In this document: positions 15,893 to 53,624 of the stretch, piece by piece
How the letters are laid out: the number at the start of each line of letters is the position of its first letter
How positions within the stretch are numbered: the first letter of the stretch is position 1
DNA from: a virus
Lineage: Duplodnaviria > Caudoviricetes
Strand: one strand, 5' to 3'
DNA length: 64,000 nt
Virus record (IMG/VR): IMGVR_UViG_3300020045_004441
Location: 13,056-77,055 of that record
Notes under the pieces: model-generated
Database searches by the model: none
The model's input: only the letters and a program-made list of their open reading frames with translations
Told to the model about the DNA's origin: nothing
Position numbers and translations under genes: made by a program

Positions 15893-16126
15893 CTATGAAT
15901 TAAGTTCATAATACTCCATTGTTTTATTATACAGATTATCAGCAATTTCTTCAGCCTTTGAATTATCCATCTCAGCAAAGTAATCAACGAGTTCATCGCT
16001 GATTATCCTTGCCGTATCAAGATTATTAGAATTGATGTTCTTCTTATATATATTAATGACATCTTTATTGTTTTTAGACATTAAGACCATTAACATATCT
16101 GCAATTCTAAATAGTTCGTCTTTCAT
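15893..16126 (-). CDS. Hypothetical protein
   Basis: 77-aa ORF coupled to the amidoligase stop codon. Confidence 0.55.
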   Translation of the reverse strand: MKDELFRIADMLMVLMSKNNKDVINIYKKNINSNNLDTARIISDELVDYFAEMDNSKAEEIADNLYNKTMEYYELNS

Positions 16127-17562: not shown

Positions 17563-19465
17563 ATCCTGTAACTAGGGTGAATTTTTTAAATTTATTTTCT
17601 TCGAGTAAAATATCTTCCAACTTGGATAGATTATTAATAGACATAGCTGCATCTTGTGTTGAAATACCAGACACTTCAATGTCATTACGACAAGCATCAA
17701 TTGCCATCAGAATAGCACTTAACCCATCATTTAAAGCTGTTTTAAGCAAGGAAGCATCGGAACTTATTGCGTCATCAATATAACCCAATCCTCTGCATAG
17801 CGAGCAAACGTTCATATTTGCATCATCGCCAGTACCATTGCAGTCTGGACATAATATACAATTTTCAGGCAAATCATCATCGCTTGGCCCAGCCTCAGAT
17901 GCAACTTCAATTTCTTCCTTGAGTTTATTATGCTTATCTAAGATGGCATCCATCTCATCTTCACATTGTTTACATGTGCATGTTGTTGGATGTTGAATTA
18001 AATCACCAGCTTTTTCTGTATAAACTACTGGTAATGTAATAATCTTAGTCTCAGTCTTTTCGTGAACTGGCTTATTTATGACAGCAAGAAACTCAACACT
18101 TATTAAACTACCACCAGCAAATCTATACTTCTTTGTACTAAATAATGGTGTTACATTTCCAGTAAATAATGGAGCCTTGCATTGCATTGCTGCTGGATTT
18201 TTAAGCCATACTCTAGCGTTATCATATGTTGGTAGCTCATGATCTAATGTACATACTGGATATTCAGCATATTCACATATTTTCATTACGTTCATTTCAG
18301 TGTCATTGAAATGCCTAGCTTTACCAAGATTACGTCTACACTTATCAAATGCATCTTTATCTTTAAGCATTATTCCACGATAGAAATAATATGGCTTTTC
18401 ATCAGAAGCACATGCATATTCGCCTTTAACGCCACTCTCATCAAGATTAATAATACCATTAGCATAAGTTGGAGTTACGCCATCAAACATAAAGTAATAC
18501 CTCAATCTTGCGCAAATAATCTTTTTAGGATTAAAGTTTTTACAGATCATGTCTTTCTTGATGCTTAATTTAAATGTCTCTTTAACTTGTGGATACGCTG
18601 ATTCGTAATAAGCTGCAATTGCCTCTGCATTACCATAGCCATCATCCCAATCGTCAGTTCTACCATAACCATAATGCTTAGTACTAGAATTATTGGCAGT
18701 ATTTACATATGTTGTTGTTGGCCATATTTTATTCTGAGAACAATCTTTTCTATCGAACACTTGCTCGCTAATTATCTGACCACCAAAAATTGTATATAAT
18801 TTATTTGGCTCAAAATCCACCACGTTATCAGCATCACCACCAATAAAATATAATCCATCACACTTTGATGAAATATACATTGAGGTTTCTGACTCTTGAT
18901 AATAACACAATGGACGCTCTTCTTCAACTTTGACTCCATATGTTTTAGATAAACCTTTAAATACCTTTAAAGTATCAGGCTCTCTATCGTCCTTAATAAT
19001 TATTGCAGCTGCACCATTGTATTCAAGCAATACTCCAAAACCATAATTCATAATAATTTCAGCAAATACCATTGAGTCAGATTTTCCTTTCTTATCAATA
19101 TTGTATTTCTTAGCAAGCTCTTCCCAATTATGGAGAGTGCCATTATGAATCATTATGAATCTACCTGAACCATCTGGTAAATCAAGTACTACCGGCTGAG
19201 CTGTAGCTTCTGATATCTCACCAACACTAGCTTTTCTAGTGTGACCCAAGGCGATGTGCGATGGGTCACTATTCTTCGTGTTGATAACATAATCTTGATA
19301 TGTTGTTTTAGCTTTCTTTGATACAAATTTATCAATCGTCTCTCCAACAATTCTACCAATGGAATCACCTCCACGCTCATCGTTGTCTAATCCAAGATGA
19401 TTAAATTTATCCCAATTGAAGTTGTGATTATTTCTTAAACTGTTGTAGGCCCAAAGTCCACACAT
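17549..19465 (-). CDS. Class II (Ntn) glutamine amidotransferase with a long C-terminal extension
   Basis: N-terminal MCG nucleophile, ERGGDSIG, LGHTRKASVG, AQPV, HNGTLHNW, SDS. C-terminal CPDCNGTG/CSLCRGLG. Confidence 0.85.
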   Translation of the reverse strand: MCGLWAYNSLRNNHNFNWDKFNHLGLDNDERGGDSIGRIVGETIDKFVSKKAKTTYQDYVINTKNSDPSHIALGHTRKASVGEISEATAQPVVLDLPDGSGRFIMIHNGTLHNWEELAKKYNIDKKGKSDSMVFAEIIMNYGFGVLLEYNGAAAIIIKDDREPDTLKVFKGLSKTYGVKVEEERPLCYYQESETSMYISSKCDGLYFIGGDADNVVDFEPNKLYTIFGGQIISEQVFDRKDCSQNKIWPTTTYVNTANNSSTKHYGYGRTDDWDDGYGNAEAIAAYYESAYPQVKETFKLSIKKDMICKNFNPKKIICARLRYYFMFDGVTPTYANGIINLDESGVKGEYACASDEKPYYFYRGIMLKDKDAFDKCRRNLGKARHFNDTEMNVMKICEYAEYPVCTLDHELPTYDNARVWLKNPAAMQCKAPLFTGNVTPLFSTKKYRFAGGSLISVEFLAVINKPVHEKTETKIITLPVVYTEKAGDLIQHPTTCTCKQCEDEMDAILDKHNKLKEEIEVASEAGPSDDDLPENCILCPDCNGTGDDANMNVCSLCRGLGYIDDAISSDASLLKTALNDGLSAILMAIDACRNDIEVSGISTQDAAMSINNLSKLEDILLEENKFKKFTLVTGYDNF

Positions 19466-28568: not shown

Positions 28569-29282
28569 TTAATTATAGTATTCATGCACACATTTAGAAA
28601 CATACCCTAAATCATTTGGTATTCTAATTGACGGGAATGTACCCTGTGGCGATTTGGCTGGATAATCATTGGTTCTGTTTGTTACGAAGAAATAATTACC
28701 CTTTTGAGTTTTATCGTCCCATTCTGAAACTGCATATAACACAATATTAAACAATCCCTCAAGAGTTATCTTAGAGTCCAACATATTGCCAAGTGTTTTC
28801 ATTTTGCGGACAACCTCAAAATCTTTATGGATCTCTTCGCTGTGACAAATGAAATACACCTGTAAATCATCTCTTAGATTGCGAGCCATATCAATGATCT
28901 CAAAATAATCCTTACCAAGCTCATTGAATTTTTCATAACCCTTCTCCATTGCCTTACGCATGAACGCGAACGCTAAACTATAATGGGCGTCGTCGATCAC
29001 AATATATTTGATGTGAGGCATAGTTGTATTGATCCGGCTAAGTGCATTTTTTATATTTGCAGCTTTATCGCTAGAAAACCAATTCCCATCAGGACTTTCT
29101 GTTGGGTGAAATGGTTTATAGTGCTGTTTCCATCCTTTTGTTGGTAATCCCTTGCCAGCTACTGAGATTATAAATGTTTCCTTTGGTGGCAATCCAATAA
29201 TTCCAAGTTCTGGATTTCCCAATATTGCAGTTGATTTACCAACTCCACTCTCTCCCGTTATTCCTATTAATTCTCCTGCCAT
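28569..29282 (-). CDS. AAA_24/Sak4-like P-loop ATPase (recombination)
   Basis: Walker A GESGVGKST, Walker B IVIDD, ICHSEE, EGLFNIVLYA. Confidence 0.75.
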   Translation of the reverse strand: MAGELIGITGESGVGKSTAILGNPELGIIGLPPKETFIISVAGKGLPTKGWKQHYKPFHPTESPDGNWFSSDKAANIKNALSRINTTMPHIKYIVIDDAHYSLAFAFMRKAMEKGYEKFNELGKDYFEIIDMARNLRDDLQVYFICHSEEIHKDFEVVRKMKTLGNMLDSKITLEGLFNIVLYAVSEWDDKTQKGNYFFVTNRTNDYPAKSPQGTFPSIRIPNDLGYVSKCVHEYYN

Positions 29283-29291
29283 ATATTATTA

Positions 29292-30122
29292 TTATTTTAT
29301 TATTTCTTTGTGTTTCCAATAAAATCCGTATTTTAATATTTCTTTATCCATCCAGCTACGAATTCCTTCTTTTATTATGCCATTTTCTCTCTCAGCTTCA
29401 CCTCTAGATCTATATGTATTTATTAGGTTGTAATCCTTATCATACTGATACACTTTTTTACCTAGTCGTTTAATATTAAATTCAGATATTTTTCTTTTGT
29501 GCTCTAAGGTTAATGGAGTTCCGTTAGCCCACCATTTGTCATATATATAGGATTTATTTGCGTCATAATCCTTTTGATAACAAAATGTAAAATCTTGAAG
29601 AAAATTTTTCTTGTGACCCAAGCAGCATTGTGACACATTTGTACTAGAAGACTTTATAAATCTAGCGGCATCTGATACTGAATCAAATTCATATTGTAAT
29701 TCTCCCGTAAACCTATTGAAGACAAAAACTGGCTTAGAAGTTCGTTTCTTATTGTCCTCAATAGACTTTCTGCTTTTGTTCCAAGCTGTAATGTGTGTGG
29801 AATTATTAAGCATTTGATTGTATCCATTATTAATTACATCTAGTGAAATTATGTATTTTTCTTCTAGTTTTAGTAATTCATTTCTGTCTATTGAATCAAA
29901 TTGTTCTAATATTTCTACCTCAAAAGCAGTTGTCCCATATTTATCGAATGATTTTTGCAAATGAACATTACAATGAACATTATTTATTAGCTCATAATAA
30001 TGCCTCTGAAGTCTTAACTTTAAATTTACTGCTGATCCAATGTAGGATAAGTTTGTTTGATTGTTTGTAATTTTGTAGATCCCAAATGTTTTTGGGAATT
30101 CTTTAAAATCTAATGTATTCAT
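29292..30122 (-). CDS. GIY-YIG homing endonuclease with NUMOD1 repeats
   Basis: GIYKITN...SYIGSAVNLKLRLQRH, GYN, two NUMOD1-like repeats. Likely ATG at 30122, since the track TTG start overlaps the promoter. Confidence 0.85.
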   Translation of the reverse strand: MNTLDFKEFPKTFGIYKITNNQTNLSYIGSAVNLKLRLQRHYYELINNVHCNVHLQKSFDKYGTTAFEVEILEQFDSIDRNELLKLEEKYIISLDVINNGYNQMLNNSTHITAWNKSRKSIEDNKKRTSKPVFVFNRFTGELQYEFDSVSDAARFIKSSSTNVSQCCLGHKKNFLQDFTFCYQKDYDANKSYIYDKWWANGTPLTLEHKRKISEFNIKRLGKKVYQYDKDYNLINTYRSRGEAERENGIIKEGIRSWMDKEILKYGFYWKHKEIIK

Positions 30123-30146
30123 AACGGCTATCTGTTTATTAGATAG

Positions 30147-30177
30147 CAAAGATATACATTATTATTTAATTTACAAA
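30147..30177 (-). promoter_or_regulatory. Bacteroidota sigma-A type promoter for the GIY-YIG gene
   Basis: TTTG-N19-TATCTTTG. Confidence 0.7.
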
Positions 30178-30509: not shown

Positions 30510-31646
30510 TTATATGGTATTTTTGTTGTAATTCGCTATCTGCTCATAAACTCTTTCTGATGGTTCCCTAGGTAATTCTGCAAAGTAATTACATGCACCT
30601 AGGAACATAAGATCTATGGATGCGCTAGATATTCCATTACGATTAAGGTTAATTAGCAATTCTCTATGATTCATACCAATTCTAGCTAAATCCCAGCCAT
30701 TATATGATGGAATCTTATAATTATAGGGCCAAAACAGACTAATCATTAAATTTGCATCATTCTTGGTTGATTTATTATCAGCTAATCCTTCTGGGTTGGG
30801 TTTCAATCGTTCAATCATTACATCTCCACGATTAGTATATTGCGCATCCGTGGAATTCGCAGTTTGTTGCTGGATGAGTACTGGTGAATATCCCCATCTA
30901 TCTCTAAGTTTAAGAAATATTTTGGATGATAATTCCCCAATTGCTTCATATAGAGAGCTTTGATCCTTCTGTGGAGAAATCAAACCACAGTGATCAACAA
31001 GAACGACTACATATTCATCGGGTTTATTTGGAATATATCTATCAACAACCTTTTTAACAGTTGAGCTGCCATCATCTTCCTGCCAAGCAACATCCTTATA
31101 TTCATAATGACCATTAGCTTCAGCATAGGATTTCATTGTAAGTAATATGCCAGTAGTATTTCTAATATCATCATGAATTGTCACAATTGATTGAAATTCC
31201 ATTAACCATTGTTGAAATTCTCTAGAATCAATAATCTTCAACAATCTATCATCAAGAGTATACCCAGCAAATACAGATTGTAAATTATCTGGACTAATTA
31301 TAATCCCATACGATTTAAATAACTTATAACTAATTGCAGATATGATCAACAAGTCTGCACTAATTTCAAGACTAAAGTAGAATATCTTAAGAGTTATGTT
31401 TGTTGAATCTCTATTTGTAAGATACCAGTCAATTGGTTCAAACATATATAAGTAATTGGCTAACTGAGACTTACCTCCTTTACTTTGGGCCGAAATTATT
31501 GTAAATTGCTTTTGTCTAACTCCTGGAAGTATTGATGAAAGTCTTGGTAGACTCCATGGTATCGCTATTAGGTCTCCATTTAATTTACGCTCTCTGTTTT
31601 GTTTAAGCTGATCAACAACTCTTTTAATCCTATCTTTCTCTTCCAT
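30510..31646 (-). CDS. dnaB: DnaB-like SF4 replicative helicase
   Basis: AQSKGGKSQL (Walker A variant), FSLEIS, VLVDH, IQQQ, DNKST..DA, RNG. Confidence 0.8.
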   Translation of the reverse strand: MEEKDRIKRVVDQLKQNRERKLNGDLIAIPWSLPRLSSILPGVRQKQFTIISAQSKGGKSQLANYLYMFEPIDWYLTNRDSTNITLKIFYFSLEISADLLIISAISYKLFKSYGIIISPDNLQSVFAGYTLDDRLLKIIDSREFQQWLMEFQSIVTIHDDIRNTTGILLTMKSYAEANGHYEYKDVAWQEDDGSSTVKKVVDRYIPNKPDEYVVVLVDHCGLISPQKDQSSLYEAIGELSSKIFLKLRDRWGYSPVLIQQQTANSTDAQYTNRGDVMIERLKPNPEGLADNKSTKNDANLMISLFWPYNYKIPSYNGWDLARIGMNHRELLINLNRNGISSASIDLMFLGACNYFAELPREPSERVYEQIANYNKNTI

Positions 31647-34366: not shown

Positions 34367-36403
34367 ATTGTTTAATGCTTAGTTGTTCATAATCTTCAGG
34401 TTTATTAGTCCTGTAAGCTAATAATGATGATTTTGCATCATCTATATTAACCTCAAAATATTTAGCCATTAACTCAGCTAAAGTATCATCATCTTTTGCT
34501 CCATATTGAAATTCTAGAGCAGAGATCATAACCTCTAGCTGAGCTGTGGTCTTTTGAATCTTAGTGAAATACATACCAATACCATGGTTTTAAGTGAATT
34601 TCTCTTGCCATATCAAGAATAGCTTTACGTCTGCGATTTACAGCATTGCCGTAATTCTCATAGATAGGCTTTTTCTTAGATGTTAATACTGGCTTATAAT
34701 TAAACTTACCAAACTTAACAACTTGAACTTTCTTATCATGCCTTTGAGCTGGAAATCCATATGAATTGAGGATCATTATATCCTCTCTACATTTATGTAA
34801 TAGAATTGCTTTCATTTTTTATGTTTTGTAATTCTAATATATGGAAGAATTAATTCTGGATGCTGCTTGCCAAAGAATACTCCATTAAAATCTTGATATC
34901 TAACCTCTATGGATTTTATATCTGGATTACTTAAAGACTTTTCTATTAATTCTACTAATTCTTTCATACAGTCAATCTTGCTCTAGTGTGATAAACAACT
35001 TCCTCTTCTTTGCGTACAACAACTCTACCAATAGGTGTGATTGTTTTAGTTAATTCAAGACAGAATATATGTAATGGTTTATTAATGAAGGTAATTACCT
35101 TTTCTCCATGCACTATCTGTCCTTGAACTTTAATTGGTTCTATTCGTGGTCTCATAAGAAAAATATTTTAAATGTCCAGTAAAATGCTTCAAAAATTAAA
35201 TACATTATCAAAGCTGTTAATGCATATGGAATATACCATTTAGATATTTCAAGTTTTACTAATTTAATTCCAAGCATCATCCACAGGTAAATTACCAATG
35301 CCACTAATTCAAGCGCAATTAATACTCCAATGTGATTTAATAGTGTCATAATTATTTATAAATTAATAAACATGTTAGCATTGGGCCTCCACCAGCATTA
35401 TATTCATAACAAATATAATCTTTGATGCGACCTTTAGTTTTATATATTGTAACATTGTGTAAAAATTGGGCCCTTCCACTACATTTAGGGGCATTTTCTT
35501 TGTCAATTATTGCGTTGGATACAAATGACCCTAATACTCCAAATATTGGTTTTAAATAGCATTCTAGTGGCCTTGGAACTGATGATCTCAACCCAAACGA
35601 GAATATAAATGCTTTATTTGAAGCTGATGTGCTCTGTATGTCAATTTGCTTTAATAAACTACTTTTAATTACTTCTAGGTTAGAAGTGCATGTTAGGTCG
35701 CAATCAATAAACATAGATCCAAATAGATCAATTGATTTATTTACAACCTTGACACTTTTAAGATTCCTACATCCCCTGAATATATCAGTAAATATTGTAG
35801 GTTCTATCTCACAAATCTTCAAAGCGCTTGAATCACAAATGTATTTTCTGTAGTTATCAATATGCCTCTGATAATCTGGGCCTGTTACAATAGTTGCAGA
35901 TTTAACTTTTTGAGTCAGCGCCTCACCAGCTTTTTGATAAAACTCAGCTTCTATAATGTGTTTTATAGAAGCCGAGCTAAAATCATGTGTGTATTTAGGA
36001 TTCATTATTCTCCCAAGATTTGAAATGAAAATTCAGCATCTCTGCCATAAAGATCCCAAACATACTGCTGAACAGCCATTTTAAGCTTGTTTTTAGGGCT
36101 TAATTTGTTCCACCATGGCACGCTAACAGTTTTCTTTGGTCTTGCATCATCAGACACTGCCCAGGCGCAAAATGCTCCATTAAGCGTTGTGTGTTGCTCG
36201 CAATTGTGAAATCGCGGTAATTGTACGGTTTTAAGTTGAAATACTGGCAATTTCTCACGAGTTTCGTCATATGGATTTTTCCATAATTCAAAACATTTAT
36301 GTCCATTGTCATCAACTTTTTGTGTTGCTTCAAATTTACCCAATAGGGCTTGGCTTCCTCCGATGTTCACGGTCAGATGCACTTCTGTGTTTTTATAGTC
36401 CAT
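34353..36403 (-). other. Run of small hypothetical CDS (34353-34574, 34561-34815, 34964-35155, 35152-35349 two-TM, 35352-36005, 36005-~36403)
   Basis: Coupled ORFs. The last probably starts at MDYKN, because the track start lies inside the tmRNA terminator. Confidence 0.55.
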
Positions 36404-36421
36404 AATAATATAGATTCTAAC

Positions 36422-36460
36422 TAAAAGGGTGTTGACGTACACCCTAGGAAACGTTCCTAA
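36422..36460 (-). terminator. Post-tag hairpin plus terminator ending the tmRNA gene
   Basis: TAGGAA-CGT-TTCCTA, then AGGGTGT-ACGTCA-ACACCCT-TTT. Confidence 0.7.
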
Positions 36461-36735
36461 TTAAGCTGCAATAGCAACCTCACGGAATAAATTGATAGTT
36501 TTGCCTGTTATGGCAATTAAATTCTACTCTAATCTACTAACATCGCTGTCAAAACCAGTCAGCCCCGTAAAACAATGAGTTATTGGTTCAATTAAATAAG
36601 TTATACTCATCCGTTCCATCTTTAACTCACTGTAAAACCGTACTAACGCGACGGGTTAGCGCAACTCAATTGGCTTGAGCGAGTGGAGCTGAGGGGAATC
36701 GAACCCCTGTCCAAACAACTGTATAATTAGCATCA
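36424..36735 (-). ncRNA. ssrA: Circularly permuted (two-piece) tmRNA: acceptor piece ~36735-36684, intervening segment 36683-36567, coding piece 36566-~36424
   Basis: Minus strand reads GGAC-AGGGG-TTCGATT-CCCCT-CAGCTCC-A first, then 117 nt, then GGGGCTG-ACTGGTTTTGAC-AGCGAT. The 7-bp acceptor stem has G3.U70; helix 2 pairs across the pieces. Tag ORF 36505-36461 = GKTINLFREVAIAA*. Confidence 0.9.
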
Positions 36736-36750
36736 AACGAATTTAATTTG

Positions 36751-36830
36751 TACGCAGAGATGGATTTGAACCACCGATCTTTCCGTAGCCGTAGCCCGCC
36801 GGAGTGCTTTAACCGCTAAGCTATCTGCGA
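36751..36830 (-). tRNA. tRNA-like gene with an abnormal 14-nt anticodon loop (isotype unassignable; contains CT-ACG-GC)
   Basis: Acceptor CGCAGA/TCTGCG (1:72 mismatch), D-arm GCTT-AGCGGTTA-AAGC, 5-nt variable loop, T-arm GGTGG-TTCAAAT-CCATC. Anticodon stem TCCG/CGGA encloses GCGGGCTACGGCTA. No encoded CCA. Confidence 0.7.
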
Positions 36831-37582: not shown

Positions 37583-37669
37583 TTATTTTTCTGATGTTAC
37601 TACAGATCCACACATTGGACATTTGATACCATTATAGTGAGATCCACATGATGCACATTTATATTTCAT
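37583..37669 (-). CDS. 28-aa Zn-ribbon microprotein
   Basis: Hand translation MKYKCASCGSHYNGIKCPMCGSVVTSEK*; A-rich upstream region. Confidence 0.5.
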   Translation of the reverse strand: MKYKCASCGSHYNGIKCPMCGSVVTSEK

Positions 37670-38330
37670 ATTAATATTGTTTTAAGTTAAATAATTACCT
37701 GTCCATTTCTAAGTGGAATATTAATAATTAAAAGAGGTCTTTTGCCATTCATGTGAATCCAAGAGAAACCAATATACTATTAAACATTCTAAAAATCAAT
37801 ATCTTACAACAAACAACGTCATCTTAGCATGACTATAATATCTATGATTTCCTTACATTTCTGCGGAGTAAAGCTTTGAGAACTCCAATCATTTTTGATA
37901 TTAATATTTATCTTCAGCAGGTAACTATTATATTTTTAAAAACTACCAGAAGTCTTAACCTCTAAAACTCTGAACAATCTAATCAATTAACCACTAAAAC
38001 TCTAAATCTATGAAAAATTGACTTCTGGTAGTATAAGTAGCAATGGTTGGAATCGAACCAACATTACCCAATCTTACTATTAACGCATATCTATTCACTC
38101 GAAAGTACAAGAGGCTATTAATAATTTACATCACCGCCATTTTATTGTAAAAAAGGATTGCAGCATATCATTATTGAAGTCTGCAATCCTTAAATATTTA
38201 TTATATTCTATGTTATATCTAATTGAATCTTATTATAATGCTAGTAGGGCATACCATACTTACGCTGAATAGTGTTACACAATGGTTGTCTTTTCAATAG
38301 ACCTAACTTATGCTACGAGCTTCCTCTGAG

Positions 38331-38410
38331 TTGCCCGCAGTAGGATTGAATACCTATATCGGATGGGTTGTGAGCCCTCTGCACTATTAGTCTATTATTC
38401 GACAGTTATA
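38331..38410 (-). pseudogene. Degenerate initiator-tRNA-like element with a CAC anticodon
   Basis: GGG-CTCACAA-CCC anticodon arm (three G-C pairs), broken T-arm, 3' GCGGGCAA; D-arm and acceptor pairing are poor. Confidence 0.3.
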
Positions 38411-38502
38411 GAATACCTATAATATTTATTTATTAAATCTATTTGTTTGTAATCTAAGATAATTTAAGCCTTTTTATATCAATGCTTAGGATATTTTCAT
38501 TA

Positions 38503-38931
38503 TTATGCTGGCACTTCAGATCCAACCGAGGTAGCAATAGCTTCAGCTTCAGTTGCTTCGCTTACAATTTCGCGAGTTGATGTAAGATTGCTCAAATGAT
38601 CAACACCGCCAATTGCATCACGAGCCATCAGCTTGGCTTTCTCTTGAAGGATGTATGTATCCAACTGAGCTTCCTGGCTTAACACTTTATTTAAATCATC
38701 TGCAACAACACGACCAGTGGTTGTAATTGTCAGCGGAATTAACTCATTGCGATTTGTGCTCAATGGACGAATACTGAAAAACAATGGCTCACCAGCCTCG
38801 TTGTTACGAAGATTTGCACCTTGAGCTGCTGCATATTTAGCCAACTCTTCAACTGTACCTAACACTAGGTACACAAATACCATCAAACCACCAGCTTTGC
38901 GGTAGTAATTACTTAATTTTGCTTTTAACAT
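38503..38931 (-). CDS. Hypothetical early protein
   Basis: 142-aa ORF with strong A-rich initiation context. Confidence 0.65.
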   Translation of the reverse strand: MLKAKLSNYYRKAGGLMVFVYLVLGTVEELAKYAAAQGANLRNNEAGEPLFFSIRPLSTNRNELIPLTITTTGRVVADDLNKVLSQEAQLDTYILQEKAKLMARDAIGGVDHLSNLTSTREIVSEATEAEAIATSVGSEVPA

Positions 38932-38970
38932 TTTGTTTATTTATTAATTGTTTTTGTTTAAAACTTTAAC

Positions 38971-40058
38971 TCAATTCCAAGGTTTAATAATGAATATTAC
39001 AACCAAGGCCATAAATGTGTATAATGGCCCACTAATGATTGCAAATAATGTCTCTAATATATCAGCACCTTGCGAAGACTGATATATTTTATAGAGATTA
39101 AAGGCTCCAAATAAAAGCCATATTAATGCTATTATGTATATTGTCATGATTTAGTGTTATGTATAAAGTTTAAGAAAACTCCAAGCAATATCAATTCTGC
39201 CAATGCAGACACATAAGCTTGGTGATAAATCAGAATAGCCATACATATAGACATAAATACGCCAATAATCAAAGCTAATCTGATTTTAGTTTTCATACTC
39301 GCTGTGATTTAATTGCTTGAACTTTACGATAGCCAAAGAAGGCTAAAATTGACTTATTTGCCTGAGATTTTGAAGTGGCAAATGTATCATACTCTATTGC
39401 AGTCTTATCTGATAAGCATACAATTGTGTGAAATTTAACTGACATTTAATTTGTGTTTAATAATCGTAATCACTACCACCATTAACCCCGTGATTGTCAT
39501 CTGTGATGATATCGAAATCATCATCTAATGTGCTCTGAATTACTGTAAGTTTTTTCATATTGTTATTTAATTAAGTTTAATTGATAAGACTGGCTTGGTT
39601 GCCACTATCCACATATTAAATGTGCTACAGTACCAGTCCTTGAGGCTCTTGTATTACTAGTAATATTGTTAACAACTAATAGTCTGACTATACAGGAACA
39701 CTGAGTTACCAGACAGTACTTTAAGTTAATCCTATAGCTTAGGTAGTAACAGATGTGGATAGTATTAGTTGTTATATTATAACTCCAATGAGATTTCGTA
39801 CTCATATCTTCTAGCGGTTAGCAATCTGTCCTGTGAATATTAGACGATGGAGCAATATTTTAATAAATACAACCAGCTTGAGATCCATAACTTTCATTAA
39901 AGATAGCTGGCTGCATTATTTGTGTGTTATCGTGGCATTAGATTGCCTGTCCTAAAACTTTAAGGTAAAGGCATAAACCAATCAGCGAAGATTACTCCAA
40001 ACGTGATGATAATAGCACCGATAACAATTGCACATGTGTATCTTAGAAAGCGTTTCAT
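38971..40058 (-). other. Cluster of hydrophobic microproteins (38971-39147, 39144-39296, 39960-40058)
   Basis: Hand translations MTIYIIALIWLLFGAF..., MKTKIRLALIIGVFMSICM..., MKRFLRYTCAIVIGAIIITFGVIFADWFMPLP; the first two are ATGA-coupled. Confidence 0.5.
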
Positions 40059-40206
40059 ATAAAGCTTTTAAGTTGATGTAATACTATTAATTGCGTAATC
40101 CAATCATATCTAGCTCTAATGCGGTTATATTTAGCATGAGAATAGTGTTGAAGGGAAATTATAGCAAGATGACAGGTTGAGATGGTTAGGGAAAGGTTAA
40201 TTAAGT

Positions 40207-40708
40207 TCATTTTGGTTGATTATTAACAATCTCCTTAATATAAACCATCTCAATATCATACTCATCTAAGTCCATGAGACATGTTTGTCCAGAACTAAAA
40301 TGTTTGCGAAATATGGGCAGTCTATCTCTAAGTGATATTTCTCGCCACCATTGCAAAGCTAAGCTTCGTTGATCTAATGTTAATGTTGAATTAGCCATAA
40401 TTCTAGGTTGTATAAATTGTTAATACTTGAGATAGGTGGAATATGAGGGTGTTAGGATAGTCTTATTCAATCACTCAATCATTCAATCACTAATCATTAC
40501 TAAGCGTCACTGAACCTTCGAAGTCTTTGAATGAATCTTCAATCCAGTCCTCTCTGTGATCGCCAATATAATATGATGCATTCTTAAGCCTAGCAACAAC
40601 AACTCCGTCGCGTTTTGACTTAAACAAAACTACATGTGATGACGATGCCATTAGTTTTGGAAATGACTTTGATTGAACATCTGATGTATTATTTACTATT
40701 GATTTCAT
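40207..40708 (-). other. Two small hypothetical CDS (40207-40398, 40490-40708)
   Basis: ORFs in the early region. Confidence 0.5.
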
Positions 40709-41480
40709 AATTAGTTATTTATAAGTTTGGCATGATTATTGTTACGCGCGCGTACATTATCATATAGATATATTTAGTGCAATGCTCCGTGAATACTAAG
40801 AGCATTGCTAATGTCTAATAAGCCACATAGTCTCCTAGAGTCAATGTGGTAATAATGTAACTCATCGCATGGCGCAAGATTTAATTGTTAATATATTGGT
40901 GCTAAATAGCGTCAAACATATCCTTAGACGAACTTGATGTATGCGAATTTATGAAGCATACAACTAGGGAGTCTTATAAGAGTATTATTAATTGTTATTG
41001 CAATACAGGACTATATCCCCTAAATATATGGATATAGATATTAATTATAATAGAAGCGAATATCTAGCTTAAACTCGTCGGCCCGCAGATCATCTGCACT
41101 TAGTTTAATTTAATGCCACTAGTATATATATCGACAACTAGTATTCACTTAATATTAATTCAAGGCTCGATTCTTCCGATGCCCTGGCAATCCAGCTTTA
41201 GCATATGGTGTAACCTTAGCTACCTTAGTGCTACTGAATAACTCTGACTGTACTCCAGCCATAATACGCTTGATTCTACGTGATTGTGATTGCATGATAT
41301 AAATCTTTAGGTATTAATAAATAATGTCTATAATGGCTTGGTATTGTAATAATACAGGCTGCTGCAATGGCTTAATGGCGCTATTATAGTGGTTAGCTAG
41401 CCGATAGCATTTAAGTGCGGTAATCACACCTGTAATATTATATCTATATACAGCACCTTGGTATATATAGATTATTATGT

Positions 41481-41548
41481 CCAACATTGGCACATCAACG
41501 ACTGTTGATATTTAATTATACGATAGCAACCGTATTAACCAATGTTGA
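41481..41548 (-). repeat. 68-nt structured repeat, copy B (three-way junction)
   Basis: 58/68 identical to 41915-41982 with no indels; every difference is compensatory, a wobble, or in a loop. Confidence 0.8.
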
Positions 41549-41615
41549 TCCAGAAATATTATAGAGCCCTCAAGGTGATCAGCATTACGCGTTATTCAAG
41601 GGCTCTATTTAATTC

Positions 41616-41879
41616 TTAGCAAGGAATTGCCCTTACATATTTAACGTCAATGTTTTGGCCGTCTTTGTTGAATGAATACTCAACATCTTCAAAGCGAAGG
41701 TTGCGATCCATTTCAGTGCCAACGATGGCTGCATCAGGTGTTGTTTCAGACTGTATAACGAACTCTCTGCCTTGGCATATGCCAAACAAAGCGTCCATTA
41801 CAATCTCTTGACAACGGATGTTAGAACCGCCTGTGCGAGTCTTAGAAGCTGCTACTTGTAATACTTTAAACTTAGTCAT
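41616..41879 (-). CDS. Hypothetical early protein flanked by the two structured repeats
   Basis: 87-aa ORF; downstream hairpin TAGAGCCCT...AGGGCTCTA at ~41562-41607. Confidence 0.6.
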   Translation of the reverse strand: MTKFKVLQVAASKTRTGGSNIRCQEIVMDALFGICQGREFVIQSETTPDAAIVGTEMDRNLRFEDVEYSFNKDGQNIDVKYVRAIPC

Positions 41880-41914
41880 GATTGTATGTTTTAGATTGTT
41901 AGAGTTCAGTTATG

Positions 41915-41982
41915 TCAACATAGGCACATCAACTACTGTTGATATTTAATTATGCAATAGCAATTGCATTAACCTATGCTGA
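41915..41982 (-). repeat. 68-nt structured repeat, copy A (three-way junction)
   Basis: P1 10 bp, P2 7 bp with UGCU loop, P3 8 bp with AGUA loop; lies 35 nt upstream of the ATG at 41879. Confidence 0.8.
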
Positions 41983-42390
41983 TCTAGTTAGATAGATACT
42001 AGTGGGTGCTAGACTTATGAGTTATCTTACTGCTAGCACACTGTATCATTAGCTGTGTTGTGTTGATATATTATTGGCGCTAATCCCAACAAACAACATC
42101 CGTGACTATACGTGGTCGCACGACAAACCCCATGGACTTACAACATCAGTAAACTGATGAATGCCAAGAGTTAGTGAAGGTGAAAGATCCCCTTGCTGGC
42201 AGCTGATGAGAGCGATAATCTCAAAGACCCAGGGGTGATGCCCAAAGCGATAACGATGAGGGGGATCAGTGTGGTATTATCCCATCCTCTCATTAATATC
42301 CAAATTTTCAGAATTTTTATTATAAAATTTTTCAACTAAATTTTTAGTCATCTGACTATGTTTATAGTCAATTAGCCATGCTAAGATAGA

Positions 42391-42422
42391 TTTGGTAGTG
42401 TCAAAATAATGTTGTATATTTG
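42391..42422 (+). promoter_or_regulatory. Bacteroidota sigma-A type promoter opening the + strand block
   Basis: TTTG-N20-TATATTTG, right after an AT-rich tract (42300-42350) at the strand switch. Confidence 0.75.
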
Positions 42423-42807
42423 TTGATTAATAGCGTGCTCTGCTGGGTATATTGCGTGCAAGACTTTCTCAGTAATTCACTCCGAGTGTTAAATCGTGTA
42501 GGAGTTAGACGTCGGGTTTCTATTAAGGCAAGTTGAGATTAACAGATTGTCCCCGATAGAGCGAAAATGACCTTAAGGTGTTTAATAAAATTGATCGGGT
42601 GTTTGGGGCCATGAGTGATTGGTAAGGATTGACTCAAACCTAGTCTGATTCGTCAGATAGCAGGGATTAAATGATCGTTCTCGATTAGAATTTAGTAAAT
42701 ATTGTAAGGTTAAATCGGACTTTGGCAACACAGTCTCAAGGCGGTACTTAGGTGGCGTATATGAGATGGGTTTGTCTGGATTGAATCATTAATTTAAATT
42801 ATATAAT

Positions 42808-48344: not shown

Positions 48345-48908
48345 ATGCAATTACTGCAATTTAAAAAGGATTCATATGATGTAATATTTACTGAGGAGTG
48401 TACGATGCTTGCTCCATTTAAAAAGATATTAGATCGAGATAAATCTAAAGATAAAGACATTGCAACAAAAGAAATAACCTTCATATGGTTTTACTCTGAC
48501 ATAACAAGTCCTTATCAAAGTATATTAGTAGACGCTGATAGGTGTGAAGAAATTAGACGTGATATTGAACTTCCAGCTAAATGGAAGATTGATTCAGTTA
48601 TACAAGACGCTGTTAAGTTTTATATTGAGAGATCTAAAACTGCTGTATATTATATGTATGAGGCTGCTATGGCTAGTGCGTCTGCGTGTAATGAGATACT
48701 TAAGGATACTAAATCTCTAATAGCTTTGTATGATGATAAAATAGGAGCCTTACAAAAGGTTCTTGGAGCGCTAGAGAAAGTACCAAAAGTTATGGAATCA
48801 TTAAGAAATGTTGAGAAAGAGCTTATCCGTCAGATTGAAGATAAGGAAGGCAAGAAGATTGGAAGCAAATCATTTGCCGTATATGAAGAGGGATTAACAA
48901 TTGACTAA
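48345..48908 (+). CDS. Conserved protein coupled to TerL (candidate small terminase)
   Basis: TAATG overlap with terL; function inferred from position only. Confidence 0.4.
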   Translation: MQLLQFKKDSYDVIFTEECTMLAPFKKILDRDKSKDKDIATKEITFIWFYSDITSPYQSILVDADRCEEIRRDIELPAKWKIDSVIQDAVKFYIERSKTAVYYMYEAAMASASACNEILKDTKSLIALYDDKIGALQKVLGALEKVPKVMESLRNVEKELIRQIEDKEGKKIGSKSFAVYEEGLTID

Positions 48909-51190
48909 TGAGTGAAGAGAAAATAACTAACTATATAAAAGTAAACAAATATCAAACTCCAATTAATGAGGAATTAAAGAATTCTTTATCTAAGGAAGTA
49001 TTCTCGGATTTGCTAGAGTTCTGTGAATCAGTGGGTTTCATTAAATGGCTAATCTCGCCGGAAGAGGTTCGCGGTTTTGCTAAAGATAGAGAGCGAGACG
49101 AATCTGGTAAGATTAAGGTTGATATAACTAAACCTCATATTCTTGAGGATATGGATTTTTTTAGAGAAAGAGCTTTATATCATGAGAAGCATGGTAGATA
49201 TACTCATTTACGGCCCAACCCTAATCCTAAATCAGAATATACAGCCTTTTGGAAGGAAGAGTTGCGTAGATGGAGAGATGGATTAGTTAGACCTAGTGAT
49301 GGAGAGTGGATTCCAGGTGGATATTATTTTTATTTAAACTACAGTCCAATCTGGATAAATGTTGAAGCATCAACTACTGGAGGCAAGAAGAGTCGCGGTA
49401 AGCGTAGTAAACACTTTCCAAATGTGTGGCAAGGTGATTATCTATTCTTTCATTATATAGAGCAAGCTAGAAATAACGGAGCTCACTGTAAATTATTAAA
49501 ATGTCGTGGTGTAGGGTTCAGCTATAAATTAGCATCTCTATCTCCACGTAATATGTATATAGAGCCGGGATTACCAAACTTTCACTTAGCATCTGATAAG
49601 ACATTCTTAGATGGAGAGAAGGGAGTGTTCGGTAAGGTTCTTGACGTCTTAGACTGGATAGCAGATAGTACTCCACTGCCTAAAATGAGGCTTGTTAACG
49701 GTATTAGATCGAGAGAAATACAGTTAGGTTACCAAGATGAGTACGGAGTTAAAAAGGGGCTTAAATCGTCTGTATATGGCATTAGTTTGAAGGACAATCC
49801 AGATAAAGCTCGTGGGGTGCGTGGCCCATTAATTCACTATGAAGAAGATGGATTATTCCCAAATCTGGAGAAAGCTTGGGGTGTTAATAGAAAGGCTGTA
49901 GAGGATGGAGATATTGTTTATGGACTCATGCTTGCCGGTGGTACTGGTGGTACTGAAAACGCTGATTTTGAGGGTTCAGAGAAATTATTTAGAACTCCAT
50001 TAGCTTATAATATATATGGCATTCCAAATGTATTTGATAAAAACTCCAACGGAGAGACTGTTTGTGGATTCTTCTGGGGAGCATATATGAATCGAGCAAA
50101 GTGTTATGATCCAATCAATGGAGAGTCAGATGTAGTTAAAGCTTTAGTTCAGGTTTTAGAAGATAGATTTATCGTAAAATATAATTCATCTGATCCAGGA
50201 GTCATAACACAAAAGCTTGCAGAGGAGTGTATTACTCCATCTGAGGCTGTCATGAGAACGTCTGGAACAATATTTCCAGTAAGTGATTTAAAAGATTATA
50301 GGGATTCTGTTAAGATTCAAGGGGCTAGATTCTTTGATACACATTATGTAGGTAACCTAATATTAAATCAACACAATATAGAATGGAAACCAGATGCAGA
50401 TTTGTATCCAATAAGAAAGTTTCCACTTGGAACAGATAGGCCAGAGGGTGCTTTAGAAATATATGAAATGCCTAAATATGGTGTTGATGGAAAGATAGAT
50501 CCACATCGATATATATCTGGAATTGACCCTGTTGATGACGATGAAGCTAAAACAACATCACTCACATCAATATTTATATTTGATTTATATACAGATCGTA
50601 TAGTAGCCGAATACACAGGTAGAACAAAGTTCGCCAATGATTTCTATGAAATGTGCCGAAGGTTACTTATATTCTATAATGCTAAGGCTAATTACGAAAA
50701 CAACAAGAAAGGTATATTTAATTACTTTGATCAGAAGCGTTGCTTAAATTTATTGTGCGAAACTCCACAGATTCTTAGAGATATGGAATACGTTAAGGGT
50801 TCTGGCTTTGGAAATAAAAGCCTCGGTACTAACGCTACCTTACCAATTAATACGTGGGGTAGAAGACTTCAAAGAGATTACTTGATGAGTAAAGCTTTTA
50901 TGCAGGATGTTGACACTGATGGAAATCAAATTGGCGAAAAACTTAATATGCACACTGTCAGATCAATGGGGTACATAGATGAGCTGATTGCTTGGAACTC
51001 AGATATAAATGCAGATAGAATTTCAGCAATGGGTATGTTGATGATATACAGAGAAGATAGGTTAAAATATATTCAGCAACGTGACAATAAAACAACTGAT
51101 GACGATTACGATGAATATATAGATAAGAATTTTCAGAATGCATATCAAGGGCAAAACAGCTATGGAGTATCTGCATCGTCAGATTGGTAG
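48908..51190 (+). CDS. terL: Terminase large subunit
   Basis: LKCRGVGFSY (Walker A), ARGVRGPLIHYEEDG (Walker B), GTGG coupling motif, nuclease SGIDPVD, YENN, NADRISAMG. Confidence 0.9.
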   Translation: MSEEKITNYIKVNKYQTPINEELKNSLSKEVFSDLLEFCESVGFIKWLISPEEVRGFAKDRERDESGKIKVDITKPHILEDMDFFRERALYHEKHGRYTHLRPNPNPKSEYTAFWKEELRRWRDGLVRPSDGEWIPGGYYFYLNYSPIWINVEASTTGGKKSRGKRSKHFPNVWQGDYLFFHYIEQARNNGAHCKLLKCRGVGFSYKLASLSPRNMYIEPGLPNFHLASDKTFLDGEKGVFGKVLDVLDWIADSTPLPKMRLVNGIRSREIQLGYQDEYGVKKGLKSSVYGISLKDNPDKARGVRGPLIHYEEDGLFPNLEKAWGVNRKAVEDGDIVYGLMLAGGTGGTENADFEGSEKLFRTPLAYNIYGIPNVFDKNSNGETVCGFFWGAYMNRAKCYDPINGESDVVKALVQVLEDRFIVKYNSSDPGVITQKLAEECITPSEAVMRTSGTIFPVSDLKDYRDSVKIQGARFFDTHYVGNLILNQHNIEWKPDADLYPIRKFPLGTDRPEGALEIYEMPKYGVDGKIDPHRYISGIDPVDDDEAKTTSLTSIFIFDLYTDRIVAEYTGRTKFANDFYEMCRRLLIFYNAKANYENNKKGIFNYFDQKRCLNLLCETPQILRDMEYVKGSGFGNKSLGTNATLPINTWGRRLQRDYLMSKAFMQDVDTDGNQIGEKLNMHTVRSMGYIDELIAWNSDINADRISAMGMLMIYREDRLKYIQQRDNKTTDDDYDEYIDKNFQNAYQGQNSYGVSASSDW

Positions 51191-51245: not shown

Positions 51246-53624
51246 ATGTCAACACAATCATCTGGATTTCCCAGACAAAAATTACCATCTTCAAAGAAAA
51301 ATCTAGAGTGGAGAAAGTCTCATTTAGATTGGGCGGACAAGAATAGTTATCTTTTTAATAATAATGTACGCAGATCATTGCGTGGCAAGAAGATTAATTA
51401 CGACTTGTTTAACGGCATATTGCATGAAGAAGATATGAAGAAGACTCTTAACCCGATGAATAAACGGGTTGGTCTTATACCAAGTCAAATACAGCATTTC
51501 CCAATTATTAACAATCCATTAAACGTTTTAATAGGTGAGGAATCTCGTAGAAAACATGATTACATTGTTAAGGTGTGTAATGATGATGCTATATCTGCAA
51601 TTGAAATTGATAAGGTTAAGGACGCTCAGGAAAGGATACTTCAAATTATCACAGCTGAATATCCAGATGAGAAAGAGGCTGAAAAAGAAATAGAAAGATT
51701 ACAACAATATTTTAATTATAATTGGCAAGATCTACGAGAGAAGAGAGCTAATTGGTTGCTAAAACATTATATCAAGGAGTTAGACTTTAACTTCAAAATG
51801 AATCAGGGGTTTAAGGACGTTCTTATCGCAGCTGAAGAGATATATCAATTCGATATATGCAGCGGTGAACCTACAATGGAATGCTTAAATCCAAGAAAAG
51901 TATATACCCTTAGAAGTGGTTATTCATCTAAAATAGAAGATGCTGACATTATTATTCTTGACGATTATTGGTCGCCAGCGAGAATTATTGATAATTACTA
52001 TGAAGACCTTAAAGATAAAGATATTGAATATATTGAGTCTATATCAAACCAAAATCTTGTACAGACTGATGAGATGGGTAATATGGACGAAAGGAGCGCT
52101 TTTTTATATTCTCCCCTCATAACCGAAGACAACCTAGAGAACAACACGGTTGATTCGTTTGTATGGATGGGAAATAACTTTGCTGGACTTCCAAATTCAT
52201 CATATGTAGACAATATGGGTAACGTTAGAGTTCTTCGTATATACTGGAAATCTAAGCGTAAAATTAAATCAGTTAAAGCATATGATCCGCAGACTGGTGA
52301 GGAGATGTATTCATTTAAGGATGAGACTTATAAAGTAGACCAATTTGCTGGAGAAGAATCAGAAGACCTCTGGGTTAATGAAATCTGGGAAGGTATTAAG
52401 ATAGGAAAGGAAGTATATATAAATATGCGTCCTAAGAAAGTACAATATATGCGCCTAAATAATCCAGCTCAATGTCATGCTGGTATTATTGGTCAAATAT
52501 ATAATACAAATCAGGCAAAAGCTGTATCTCTTGTAGATAGGATGAAGCCATATCAATATCTGTTTGATGCAGTTAAAGATAGGCTTAATAAGACTATTGC
52601 AAAGAACTATGGTAAAATTCTAGAATTAGATAAAGCTAGAATGCCAGCTGGTTGGGATTATCAAAAATGGTTGTATTTTATTGAGCAAGATAACATATCT
52701 GTAGTTGATAGCTTTAAGGAAGGAACTAAAGGGGCTGCTACTGGAAAGATAGCTGGCAACTTTAACACTTCTGGAAGACCATTAGACTTAGAGGTTGGAA
52801 ATTCAATTCAATTATATATTAATCTACTTGAATATCTCAAAGGTGAGATGTTTGAGATATCTGGTGTCTCTAAGCAGCGCCAGGGTCAGGTTGACAATCG
52901 TGAGACAGTGGGTGGCGTAGAGCGTGCAATTTCAAGTAGCTCCCATAGCACTGAAGAGCTTTTTATGATACATGACAATGTTCGTAAGCGCGCATTGATT
53001 GCGTTGCTAGAAACGGCTAAAATTGCCCTAAAAGGACGCAATAAGAAATTGCAATATATTACTGATGATAAGATAATGACAATGCTTGATGTAGACGGAG
53101 ATGAATTTGCAGAAATGGATTATGATATCATGGTTGATAATGATATGGGAGATATGGAGCTTAAGCAAAAATTAGAACAATTAGCTCATGCTGGACTCCA
53201 GAATCAAATGCTGTCATTCTCTACTGTAATGAAGATATTTACAGATTCATCATTAACATCCGTAATGCGTAGAATTGAGCAAGATGAGAACGCAATGAAA
53301 CAAAGTAAATCCGAAGAAGGTCAGGCTCAAAATGAAGCAATGCAAGCTCAGGTACGGTCTAATGAAAAGATGAAGCAATTAGAACTTCAATTGCAAGATT
53401 TAATTAGCCAACGTGAAAACGAGACCAGACTTCAGATCGCATTAATTGGTAAGGAAGGAGATTACACCGAAGAGGATGCATCTGATATGGAGAAAATTAA
53501 ATTACAGAGAGATAAATTAGAGCAGGATTATAAGCTGAAAATGAAAGACTTAGATGAGAAGTCTCGTCATAATATGGCACAAGAATCTATTGCTAAAAAT
53601 AAACCGCAAACATCTAAAAAATAA
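51246..53624 (+). CDS. Portal protein
   Basis: 792 aa directly after terL; IQHFPIINNPLNVLIGEE, SLVDRMKPYQY, ISGVSKQRQGQ, C-terminal coiled coil; crAss-like size. Confidence 0.85.
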   Translation: MSTQSSGFPRQKLPSSKKNLEWRKSHLDWADKNSYLFNNNVRRSLRGKKINYDLFNGILHEEDMKKTLNPMNKRVGLIPSQIQHFPIINNPLNVLIGEESRRKHDYIVKVCNDDAISAIEIDKVKDAQERILQIITAEYPDEKEAEKEIERLQQYFNYNWQDLREKRANWLLKHYIKELDFNFKMNQGFKDVLIAAEEIYQFDICSGEPTMECLNPRKVYTLRSGYSSKIEDADIIILDDYWSPARIIDNYYEDLKDKDIEYIESISNQNLVQTDEMGNMDERSAFLYSPLITEDNLENNTVDSFVWMGNNFAGLPNSSYVDNMGNVRVLRIYWKSKRKIKSVKAYDPQTGEEMYSFKDETYKVDQFAGEESEDLWVNEIWEGIKIGKEVYINMRPKKVQYMRLNNPAQCHAGIIGQIYNTNQAKAVSLVDRMKPYQYLFDAVKDRLNKTIAKNYGKILELDKARMPAGWDYQKWLYFIEQDNISVVDSFKEGTKGAATGKIAGNFNTSGRPLDLEVGNSIQLYINLLEYLKGEMFEISGVSKQRQGQVDNRETVGGVERAISSSSHSTEELFMIHDNVRKRALIALLETAKIALKGRNKKLQYITDDKIMTMLDVDGDEFAEMDYDIMVDNDMGDMELKQKLEQLAHAGLQNQMLSFSTVMKIFTDSSLTSVMRRIEQDENAMKQSKSEEGQAQNEAMQAQVRSNEKMKQLELQLQDLISQRENETRLQIALIGKEGDYTEEDASDMEKIKLQRDKLEQDYKLKMKDLDEKSRHNMAQESIAKNKPQTSKK

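Follow-up and report, generated by a model that had tools for sequence, protein, structure and literature searches.

A candidate two-piece tmRNA gene of Bacteroidota type in a crAss-like phage

A permuted tmRNA gene in an uncultured phage

We wondered how a phage could come to carry a transfer-messenger RNA (tmRNA) gene whose two halves stand in reverse order, and whether such a gene could work. The question is raised by a short locus in a 64,000-nucleotide (nt) stretch of DNA (positions 13,056 to 77,055 of the IMG/VR virus record IMGVR_UViG_3300020045_004441; Duplodnaviria, Caudoviricetes), referred to below as the window. An earlier note, made from the letters of the window, had read this locus as a circularly permuted, minimal two-piece tmRNA gene of a Bacteroidota phage. 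Two-piece tmRNA is ascribed to mitochondria and to three lineages of bacteria; the bacterial cases, reportedly described by Keiler and co-workers in 2000 and by Sharkady and Williams in 2004, are those of Alphaproteobacteria, a betaproteobacterial lineage and cyanobacteria.

ARAGORN called a permuted tmRNA ("tmRNA*") at 36370–36776 on the minus strand, the sole gene that it reported for the window, with the tag GKTINLFREVAIAA. The Rfam family tmRNA_permuted (RF04321, Rfam 15), into which the former families RF01849–RF01851 have been merged, matched 36461–36743 of the same strand with 70.3 bits and an E-value of 1.7e-11. This is above the gathering score of 47 bits, which we used as the cut-off for permuted tmRNA. 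The reading of a tmRNA gene that is circularly permuted, very small and devoid of pseudoknot 1 is borne out, and all the sequence features that had been listed for it (GGAC, the T-arm, the acceptor stem, G3.U70, a 117-nt spacer and the tag) are present on the minus strand.

Read from 5′ to 3′, the minus strand holds a tRNA-like gene, an acceptor piece, a spacer and a coding piece. The acceptor piece (∼36748–36684), which is the 3′ tRNA-like half, was delimited by the RF04321 alignment, cofolding and covariation, and its 5′ end is a predicted one. It contains the 5′ strands of helix 2d (36748–36739), helix 2b/c and helix 2a, followed by GGAC, a T-arm (stem AGGGG/CCCCU, loop UUCGAUU) and the acceptor 3′ strand CAGCUCC with the discriminator A, which ends at 36684. 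The start of this piece had previously been put at 36735, and helix 2d had been missed; the piece begins further upstream, at ∼36748. Next comes the intervening sequence of 117 nt (36683–36567) that, like the T-arm and both acceptor strands, can be read directly from the sequence.

The coding piece was placed with ARAGORN, RF04321 and folds at 36566 to ∼36418, its predicted 3′ end being set by a terminator. It opens at G36566 with the acceptor 5′ half GGGGCUG, part of the 5′ tRNA-like half GGGGCUGACUGGUUUUGAC, and continues with the 3′ strands of helices 2a–2d, a mini-hairpin, the tag reading frame (36461–36505, from ARAGORN), a helix-5-like hairpin and the terminator. The resume codon GGC (36505–36503) lies 61 nt after G1, and the tag stop TAA is at 36463–36461. 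The piece is closed by a terminator-like stem-loop, AGGGUGU ACGUCA ACACCCU followed by UUUU (36445–36426). Two terminator-like sites were found in the 900 nt scanned, versus 0.5 expected, and a comparable hairpin with a U-run stands 3′ of the tag in relatives. The predicted mature RNA has ∼213 nt, made up of an acceptor piece of ∼65 nt and a coding piece of ∼148 nt.

Predicted pairing of the two pieces

The arrangement of the permuted halves is more than chance. The acceptor stem GGGGCUG/CAGCUCC-A has seven perfect base pairs with G3.U70 present, and there is no anticodon arm. The Rfam alignment and a two-strand fold concur on the acceptor stem, helix 2a (CAG/UUG and CGA/UUG around a bulged U), helix 2b/c (CUAAU/AUUAG) and a closing helix 2d, in which AAUUAAAUUC (36748–36739) pairs with GAAUUUAAUU (36524–36515). 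Fold and covariation agree with the earlier proposal that helix 2 forms across the pieces. On the 3′ side of the tag there are, again as proposed earlier, just one hairpin and a terminator, and we saw nothing there like pseudoknots 2–4.

Helix 2d changes the distance to the resume codon. The earlier estimate of ∼20 nt between helix 2 and the resume codon shrinks to 9 nt (UGCCAUAAC plus A), a stretch that can form a mini-hairpin (UUGCC/GGCAA) taking in the resume codon itself. The accompanying statement that no pseudoknot is evident stood. The resume codon is 61 nt from the 5′ end, compared with 92–99 nt in Bacteroidota tmRNAs, which leaves pseudoknot 1 no space, and this pseudoknot is missing. 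The RF04321 hairpin that represents part of this pseudoknot is deleted in the alignment of the window gene.

We then examined covariation among 15 genes, including that of the window. RNAalifold, unaided, recovered the acceptor stem across the spacer, the T-arm and helix 2a. The 19 pairs of these elements were paired in 93.7% of cells, compared with 78% after shuffling and at most 52% when the partner was slid. Both sides had changed in a compensatory manner in 12 of the 19 pairs (none of 500 shuffles was as good), and the G.U at 3:70 was invariant in 15 of 15 genes. Helices 2b–2d were analyzed by scripts, since MAFFT does not align them. The sequence of helix 2d differs in almost every member (GCUUUUGAAAUC, CAACGAGC, CUGAUGGU, UGAUAGUC, AUUGACU and others), and its place is constant: one strand opens the acceptor piece, and the other stops ∼10 nt short of the resume codon. 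A combined Fisher test for helix 2d over 12 genes gave a P-value of ∼3e-11, which is indicative and not exact because the members are related. Covariation thus backs a potential of the two pieces to pair in trans through the acceptor stem and helices 2a and 2d.

The same build in other phages of Bacteroidota

The phage itself, judged by its large terminase (48908–51190) and portal protein (51246–53624), is a member of Crassvirales; these proteins are 42%–51% identical to those of crAss001, IAS virus, the PhiCrAssBcn phages and other Crassvirales. Because the cultured hosts named in these matches are all Bacteroidota, we infer a Bacteroidota host, in line with the earlier note.

Relatives of the gene were gathered from IMG/VR using the 5′ half and gapped patterns, through a neighboring protein, through a spacer motif, and from GenBank phages. 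The exact 3′-half pattern was unspecific in IMG/VR, where it also hit many one-piece tmRNAs and att-site ends. At least 29 distinct related phage genes, from different phage groups, have the same build, which does away with the idea of a special event in a single phage. Three relatives (L216, L218 and L219) are syntenic with the window: in each, the gene occupies the corresponding position behind a normal tRNA, and the neighboring protein is 57%–62% identical. Acceptor stems among the syntenic relatives carry compensatory changes (GGGGGUG/CACCUCC and GGGGCGG/CCGCUCC). Apart from a homing endonuclease, no neighboring genes were shared among the family loci, and so the tmRNA sits in different phage backgrounds. 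The tRNA-like halves of the window are identical to those of the otherwise unrelated phages L018 and L022 and to the host type.

Database searches led to further copies. A whole-locus BLASTN search of GenBank phages returned only a 40-nt T-arm match to cyanophage S-CAM1, and a 35-nt query from the 5′ half gave weak partial matches only, of which one (cr53_1) led to crAss-like copies. The gene is annotated as "transfer-messenger RNA, SsrA" in the crAss-like genomes cr60_1 (NC_055891), cr10_1 (MT774382), cr114_1, cr52_1, cr125_1 and cr115_1, and likewise in the isolated Chryseobacterium phage MA9V-3 (PV245944). We ran cr60_1, cr10_1 and MA9V-3 through ARAGORN, and all three were permuted. Like the window gene, these three have a G-initial tag and a resume offset of 60–62 nt, and they belong to phages of Bacteroidota. 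The annotated copies differ from it in having more diverged halves and tags (GNTSYVMDYTRLAA, GNNFVTDYTQLAVA, GNVIDINKYVAKLEVAA), and some fall below the Rfam cut-off; their records carry no comment on permutation or origin. The annotated Crassvirales and MA9V-3 genes are of the same lineage as the window gene. The latter is thus unexceptional within a phage lineage that has been annotated in public records and is under-described.

The earlier note had made its claim of novelty subject to cases already catalogued, and this caveat applies in part: the RefSeq crAss-like and MA9V-3 genes are annotated, and phage two-piece forms have been published (PMC9004378). In the searchable literature, we found no paper on tmRNA in crAss-like phages or on a two-piece form of Bacteroidota type.

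Unannotated copies exist in cr53_1 and cr56_1, and several RefSeq crAss-like genomes hold the gene unannotated or below the Rfam threshold, which matters for annotation. The copy in cr53_1 (L209/L210; NC_055889.1, 93093–93328, minus strand) is a permuted tmRNA with 50.3 bits to RF04321 and the tag GNTSYVMDYTGIAA; the record has no feature annotated there, and ARAGORN does not call the gene. In cr56_1 (L215; NC_055890.1, 6733–7521) and cr113_1 (NC_055896.1, 6525–7313), the spacer measures ∼600 nt, and an endonuclease gene is annotated within it in antisense to the tmRNA; the acceptor piece has an altered T-loop, and the tmRNA is unannotated. Cellulophaga phage phi14:2 (L228; KC821624.1, ∼4470–4500) has a lone T-arm and acceptor 3′ strand, GACGGGGGUUCGAAUCCCCCCGACUCCAC, intergenic and overlapping small annotated open reading frames (ORFs). 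RF04321 matched phi14:2 weakly, with 21 bits (∼4443–4632), and a matching 5′ half was not found there.

A contig from a metagenome may be misassembled or chimeric, and the source here is an uncultured IMG/VR record of 77 kb, listed as linear with a completeness of 76%. Dozens of independent contigs show the permuted order with spacers that vary, as do complete genomes of crAss-like phages in RefSeq and an isolated phage of Chryseobacterium. This excludes the assembly rearrangement that the earlier note had kept in view, and we give an artefact practically no chance.

Tag conservation and function

Could the gene work? The tag GKTINLFREVAIAA is encoded by 14 codons from the resume codon GGC, followed by TAA, and the frame has no start codon. 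The syntenic relatives L216 and L218 encode this very peptide, and all three nucleotide differences are synonymous (TTA/CTT, CGT/CGC); since the differences are purely synonymous, the tag appears to be under selection as a peptide. The third syntenic relative, L219, has a 14-codon variant, GKTVNFSQELLIAA. Throughout the family, the tag frame is kept in all members, and the tags are G-initial and end in AA or VA.

Several points weigh against a functional gene. Neither the window, as the earlier note had stated, nor the full 77-kb record (76% complete) yielded an SmpB gene, so function would be wholly reliant on the host protein. No convincing promoter, either sigma-70 or of Bacteroidota type (TAnnTTTG), was seen upstream. 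The close relative L217 has a tRNA-Ile directly before the downstream ORF and no tmRNA, and crAss001 has no copy of the gene, which makes it dispensable. Pseudoknot 1, missing here, is found in nearly all tmRNAs. Finally, L218 and L219 have a 6-nt T-loop and diverged tRNA-like halves, which could reflect relaxed constraint in part of the lineage.

Some of these points would suit an RNA that is made without taking part in trans-translation, either as a decoy for host SmpB or alanyl-tRNA synthetase (AlaRS) that blocks host tmRNA, or as a decaying remnant. Such an RNA could lack pseudoknot 1, be absent from some close relatives and have aberrant T-loops in others, and there is a parallel in work cited in PMC11915505, in which a tmRNA-like RNA of mycobacteriophage DS6A without a coding sequence inhibits host tmRNA in E. 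coli. A decoy would need neither the ∼10-nt spacing between helix 2d and the resume codon nor the resume context, both of which are conserved, and it would not account for a tag frame that is kept in every member, with its G-initial start, its AA or VA end and its synonymous-only differences between close relatives. We regard a decoy or remnant as improbable. On balance, we think it likely that the locus is a working gene for a Bacteroidota-type two-piece tmRNA carried by a crAss-like phage, a function that we read from its sequence.

Likeness to the one-piece tmRNA of Bacteroidota

We next asked where a permuted gene in these phages might have come from. The earlier note held that Bacteroidota use one-piece genes, and three lines of evidence agree. 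The 20-nt 5′ half of the window gene occurs exactly in at least 120 contigs of a species-level genome collection, with Bacteroidota in 79 of the 80 titles listed. Among these 120 genome loci, about 100 ARAGORN calls had G-initial tags of Bacteroidota style (e.g., GENNYALAA), and all were one-piece. Of 151 Bacteroidota genomes sampled, none reached the RF04321 cut-off, and the tmRNA database of 2025, which discusses three main permuted clades, counts 24,380 standard versus 48 permuted tmRNAs in Bacteroidota (PMC11915505, Supplementary Table 2). Sub-threshold matches to RF04321 in Bacteroidota genomes were rejected as candidates, being located on ordinary one-piece tmRNA genes.

The window gene resembles these one-piece genes in its first 20 nt, which are identical, and in its helix 2a strands and T-arm/acceptor region, which are very similar. 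They also have in common the resume context AUAAC(U)GGC, the G-initial tag and the AA end. CCA is not encoded in the window gene (its acceptor 3′ end reads CUCCA-CUC, as had been noted earlier), and the same is true of most Bacteroidota tmRNA genes examined. The one-piece genes differ in that their order is not permuted, pseudoknots are present, the tag is shorter and different, and the length is ∼390 nt (372–400 nt in those collected) compared with ∼213 nt.

We compared the family with the main types of tmRNA, with the alpha-, betaproteobacterial and cyanobacterial types represented by phage copies only. Over the 66-nt tRNA-like domain, identity to the family was 83%–91% for Bacteroidota one-piece genes, 70%–77% for phage two-piece genes with AN tags, and 55%–73% for the cyanophage type. 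The resume offset from G1 is 60–63 nt in most of the family (longer in L018 and L050), 92–99 nt in Bacteroidota one-piece genes, 82–90 nt in most AN-tag phage genes and ∼70 nt in the cyanophage type. The first tag residue is G in the family, as in most Bacteroidota tags seen, and the tags of other phage two-piece genes start with AN. The D-region of the family is 1 nt shorter than in those genes and shows as a gap against the RF04321 consensus. By domain, tag start and offset, the window gene does not fall in with the alpha-, betaproteobacterial or cyanobacterial two-piece clades, as far as their phage copies represent them. The resume context GCCAUAAC(A/U)GGCAA is common to the family and the hosts, and gut crAss-like copies equal the host tmRNA at 21 of 22 positions of the resume region. 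One member, L050, which may be an intermediate, aligns with the host tmRNA over 96 nt, including the region of pseudoknot 1. Its stretch ahead of the resume codon is of host length, and its tag begins with the host-like GEN.

These results bear on a different history, in which the gene was imported from an alphaproteobacterial, betaproteobacterial or cyanobacterial two-piece lineage, or from their phages, and was remodeled by selection or by recombination with host ssrA, with no separate permutation. Donors do exist, as two-piece tmRNAs are common in aquatic phages: a survey of 2021 found 53 of 133 unique phage tmRNAs to be two-piece, and these were mostly marine, belonging to the alpha or cyano type (PMC9004378). 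Over 40 nt of the 3′ T-arm/acceptor block, the window and cyanophage S-CAM1 have 95% identity. RF04321 was built from alpha, beta and cyano sequences alone and detects the window gene, but it models just the universal tRNA-like domain (PMC11915505). An import would also have to explain a Bacteroidota likeness in three separate parts of the gene (the 5′ half, helix 2a with the 3′ half, and the resume region with the first tag codons), the differences in D-region, tag start and offset from other phage two-piece genes, and the pre-resume region and tag start retained by L050. We consider this history unlikely.

The sequence comparisons favor a separate permutation of a Bacteroidota-type gene over an origin from the alpha, beta or cyano two-piece genes, in line with the core of the earlier idea of an independent permutation. 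One consideration speaks against it: the likeness to the host gene could, in principle, stem from recombination with host ssrA and not from common descent.

Known two-piece systems offer further points of comparison. The bacterial ones share with the window the order of 3′ half, excised spacer and 5′ half with tag, the joining of the pieces by acceptor stem and helix 2, and the loss of the later pseudoknots; the window gene stands apart in its Bacteroidota sequence type, its G-initial tag (not A), its residence in a phage and its lack of pseudoknot 1. The two-piece ssrA genes of aquatic myophages (OM43 phage Melnitz, pelagimyophages and cyanophages; PMC9004378) resemble the window in having no phage smpB, lying in the early region and adjoining tRNA genes. 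They differ in being of alpha or cyano type, with tags such as ANDxxxALAA or AKTD..., and in mostly keeping the pseudoknot-1 spacing. Melnitz also has a glutamine riboswitch (PMC9004378), and none was found at the window gene.

A conserved module in the spacer

Among relatives with common flanking halves, the spacer ranges from 41 to 601 nt in length, compared with 117 nt in the window. L046 and L052 have identical pieces and spacers of 41 and 194 nt. Such length variation between constant halves is as expected of a removed segment. The window spacer has a fold energy of −28 kcal/mol (z of −2.0).

The first 50 nt of the spacer (36634–36679, minus strand) form a conserved module. On the minus strand of the window, it starts with a small hairpin whose loop contains GCCA (36679–36665) and continues with GCGCUAACCCGUCGCGUUAGUACGG (36662–36638) and then a U-run, a part that recurs in the spacers of relatives. 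The rest of the spacer is a long, window-specific hairpin (∼36633–36572). The pattern of the module is a GCCA-loop hairpin, then GCGCUAACC-NGUC-GCGUUAGUAC-N-G, and a U-run. It was seen in 14 distinct phage two-piece tmRNA spacers, making up the whole spacer in the shortest ones (45–49 nt); besides the window, the loci are L051, L216/L232, L229, L236, L237, L244, L246, L249, L258–L261 and L264. A 4-bp helix of the module (NNGY/RCNN) is paired in 14 of 14, and three of its four pairs have changed on both sides. Folding of the module as a single H-type pseudoknot was ruled out by geometry (connecting loops of 0 nt), the 4-bp helix being the only one that covaries. An Rfam search of the spacer and its flanks returned no known riboswitch or ribozyme at E-values up to 10, and the module has no counterpart among the Rfam families.

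A possible history and mode of action

Taken as a whole, the analysis points to a reading on which we are evenly divided: that a fourth two-piece lineage, permuted independently of the other three, resides in crAss-like and further phages of Bacteroidota, being derived from the one-piece gene of the host phylum and encoding a pseudoknot-free rescue RNA of ∼210 nt in which helix 2 ends ∼10 nt before the resume codon, and that in the subfamily of the window the conserved spacer module may govern how the RNA is processed or the proportion in which the two pieces are made. Most likely, the lineage arose from a one-piece Bacteroidota tmRNA by permutation, with pseudoknots 2–4 lost at the break and pseudoknot 1 lost in most members, and then spread among phages of Bacteroidota.

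How might such a gene act? The following steps on transcription, cutting, use of host factors and tagging are modeled on the established two-piece tmRNA of Caulobacter and on tRNA maturation. The tRNA-like gene and the tmRNA gene would be transcribed together, within a leftward block of early/replication genes. With co-transcription probable, the acceptor piece would owe its 5′ end to 3′ processing of the tRNA-like gene. Host tRNA enzymes would cut the precursor, RNase P on the 5′ side of G36566 and a tRNA-type 3′ nuclease after A36684, and the CCA-adding enzyme would then supply CCA. The 117-nt spacer would be discarded, leaving the two pieces held by the acceptor stem and helices 2a–2d. Because the tRNA-like domain is near-identical to that of the host and has G3.U70, host AlaRS, SmpB and EF-Tu should accept the phage RNA, with alanylation through G3.U70. 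A ribosome stalled on a broken mRNA would resume at GGC and add (A)GKTINLFREVAIAA. A tag ending in AA is the usual protease signal, and stalled nascent chains would thus be marked for proteolysis. In E. coli, roughly 10 nt separate the end of pseudoknot 1 from the resume codon; by analogy, the frame may here be set by the end of helix 2d instead of pseudoknot 1. As to the benefit for the phage, we can speculate that extra ribosome-rescue capacity is useful in infection, when host mRNAs are degraded or when defense or toxin nucleases cut mRNAs. The earlier note had suggested that the RNA could sustain rescue if host tmRNA or tRNAs are cleaved, or could reroute tagged proteins.

If this reading is true, it would add an independent case of RNA gene permutation. 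It would also offer a minimal tmRNA made by nature, with which structural and mechanistic studies could ask what positions the resume codon when pseudoknot 1 is lacking. A further question would be why phages that infect Bacteroidota carry a rescue RNA of their own yet rely on host SmpB. The lineage includes relatives of abundant human-gut crAss-like viruses, and an isolated host–phage pair that carries it exists in Chryseobacterium sp. MA9 and phage MA9V-3.

The adjoining tRNA-like gene and other features of the window

Two nucleotides upstream of the acceptor piece lies the tRNA-like gene (36751–36830, minus strand), which matches the Rfam tRNA family RF00005 with 46.8 bits. In place of a 7-nt anticodon loop it has 14 nt, including a tandem GGCUAC GGCUAC, and pair 1:72 is U.U. 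ARAGORN rejects it at default settings and, with relaxed thresholds, reports an 8-nt loop or a 5-nt "intron." Syntenic relatives carry a normal tRNA-Ile(GAU) or tRNA-Asn in its place. In L018, too, the tmRNA is preceded by an unusual tRNA-like element, in this case one whose anticodon arm is extended.

An ORF-poor stretch at 37600–42800 has few ORFs of 60–145 codons and ends at a switch of coding strand and GC skew (∼41–42.8 kb). No tRNA or Rfam family was found within 37600–42800. An alternative genetic code for this stretch was rejected, as reassignment of TAG or TGA opens almost nothing.

Among the replication genes, a free-standing ORF for a GIY-YIG/NUMOD1 homing endonuclease (29292–30149, minus strand) lies between ORFs for a Sak4-like annealing protein (28569–29282) and a DnaB-like helicase (30510–31646). 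Elsewhere in the window, adjoining ORFs at 16123–19465 on the minus strand encode an amidoligase-like protein (479 aa) and a glutamine amidotransferase-like protein (638 aa), and the latter matches proteins of Cellulophaga phage phi14:2 and gut phage cr108_1 with 35%–37% identity over its N-terminal 240–260 residues.

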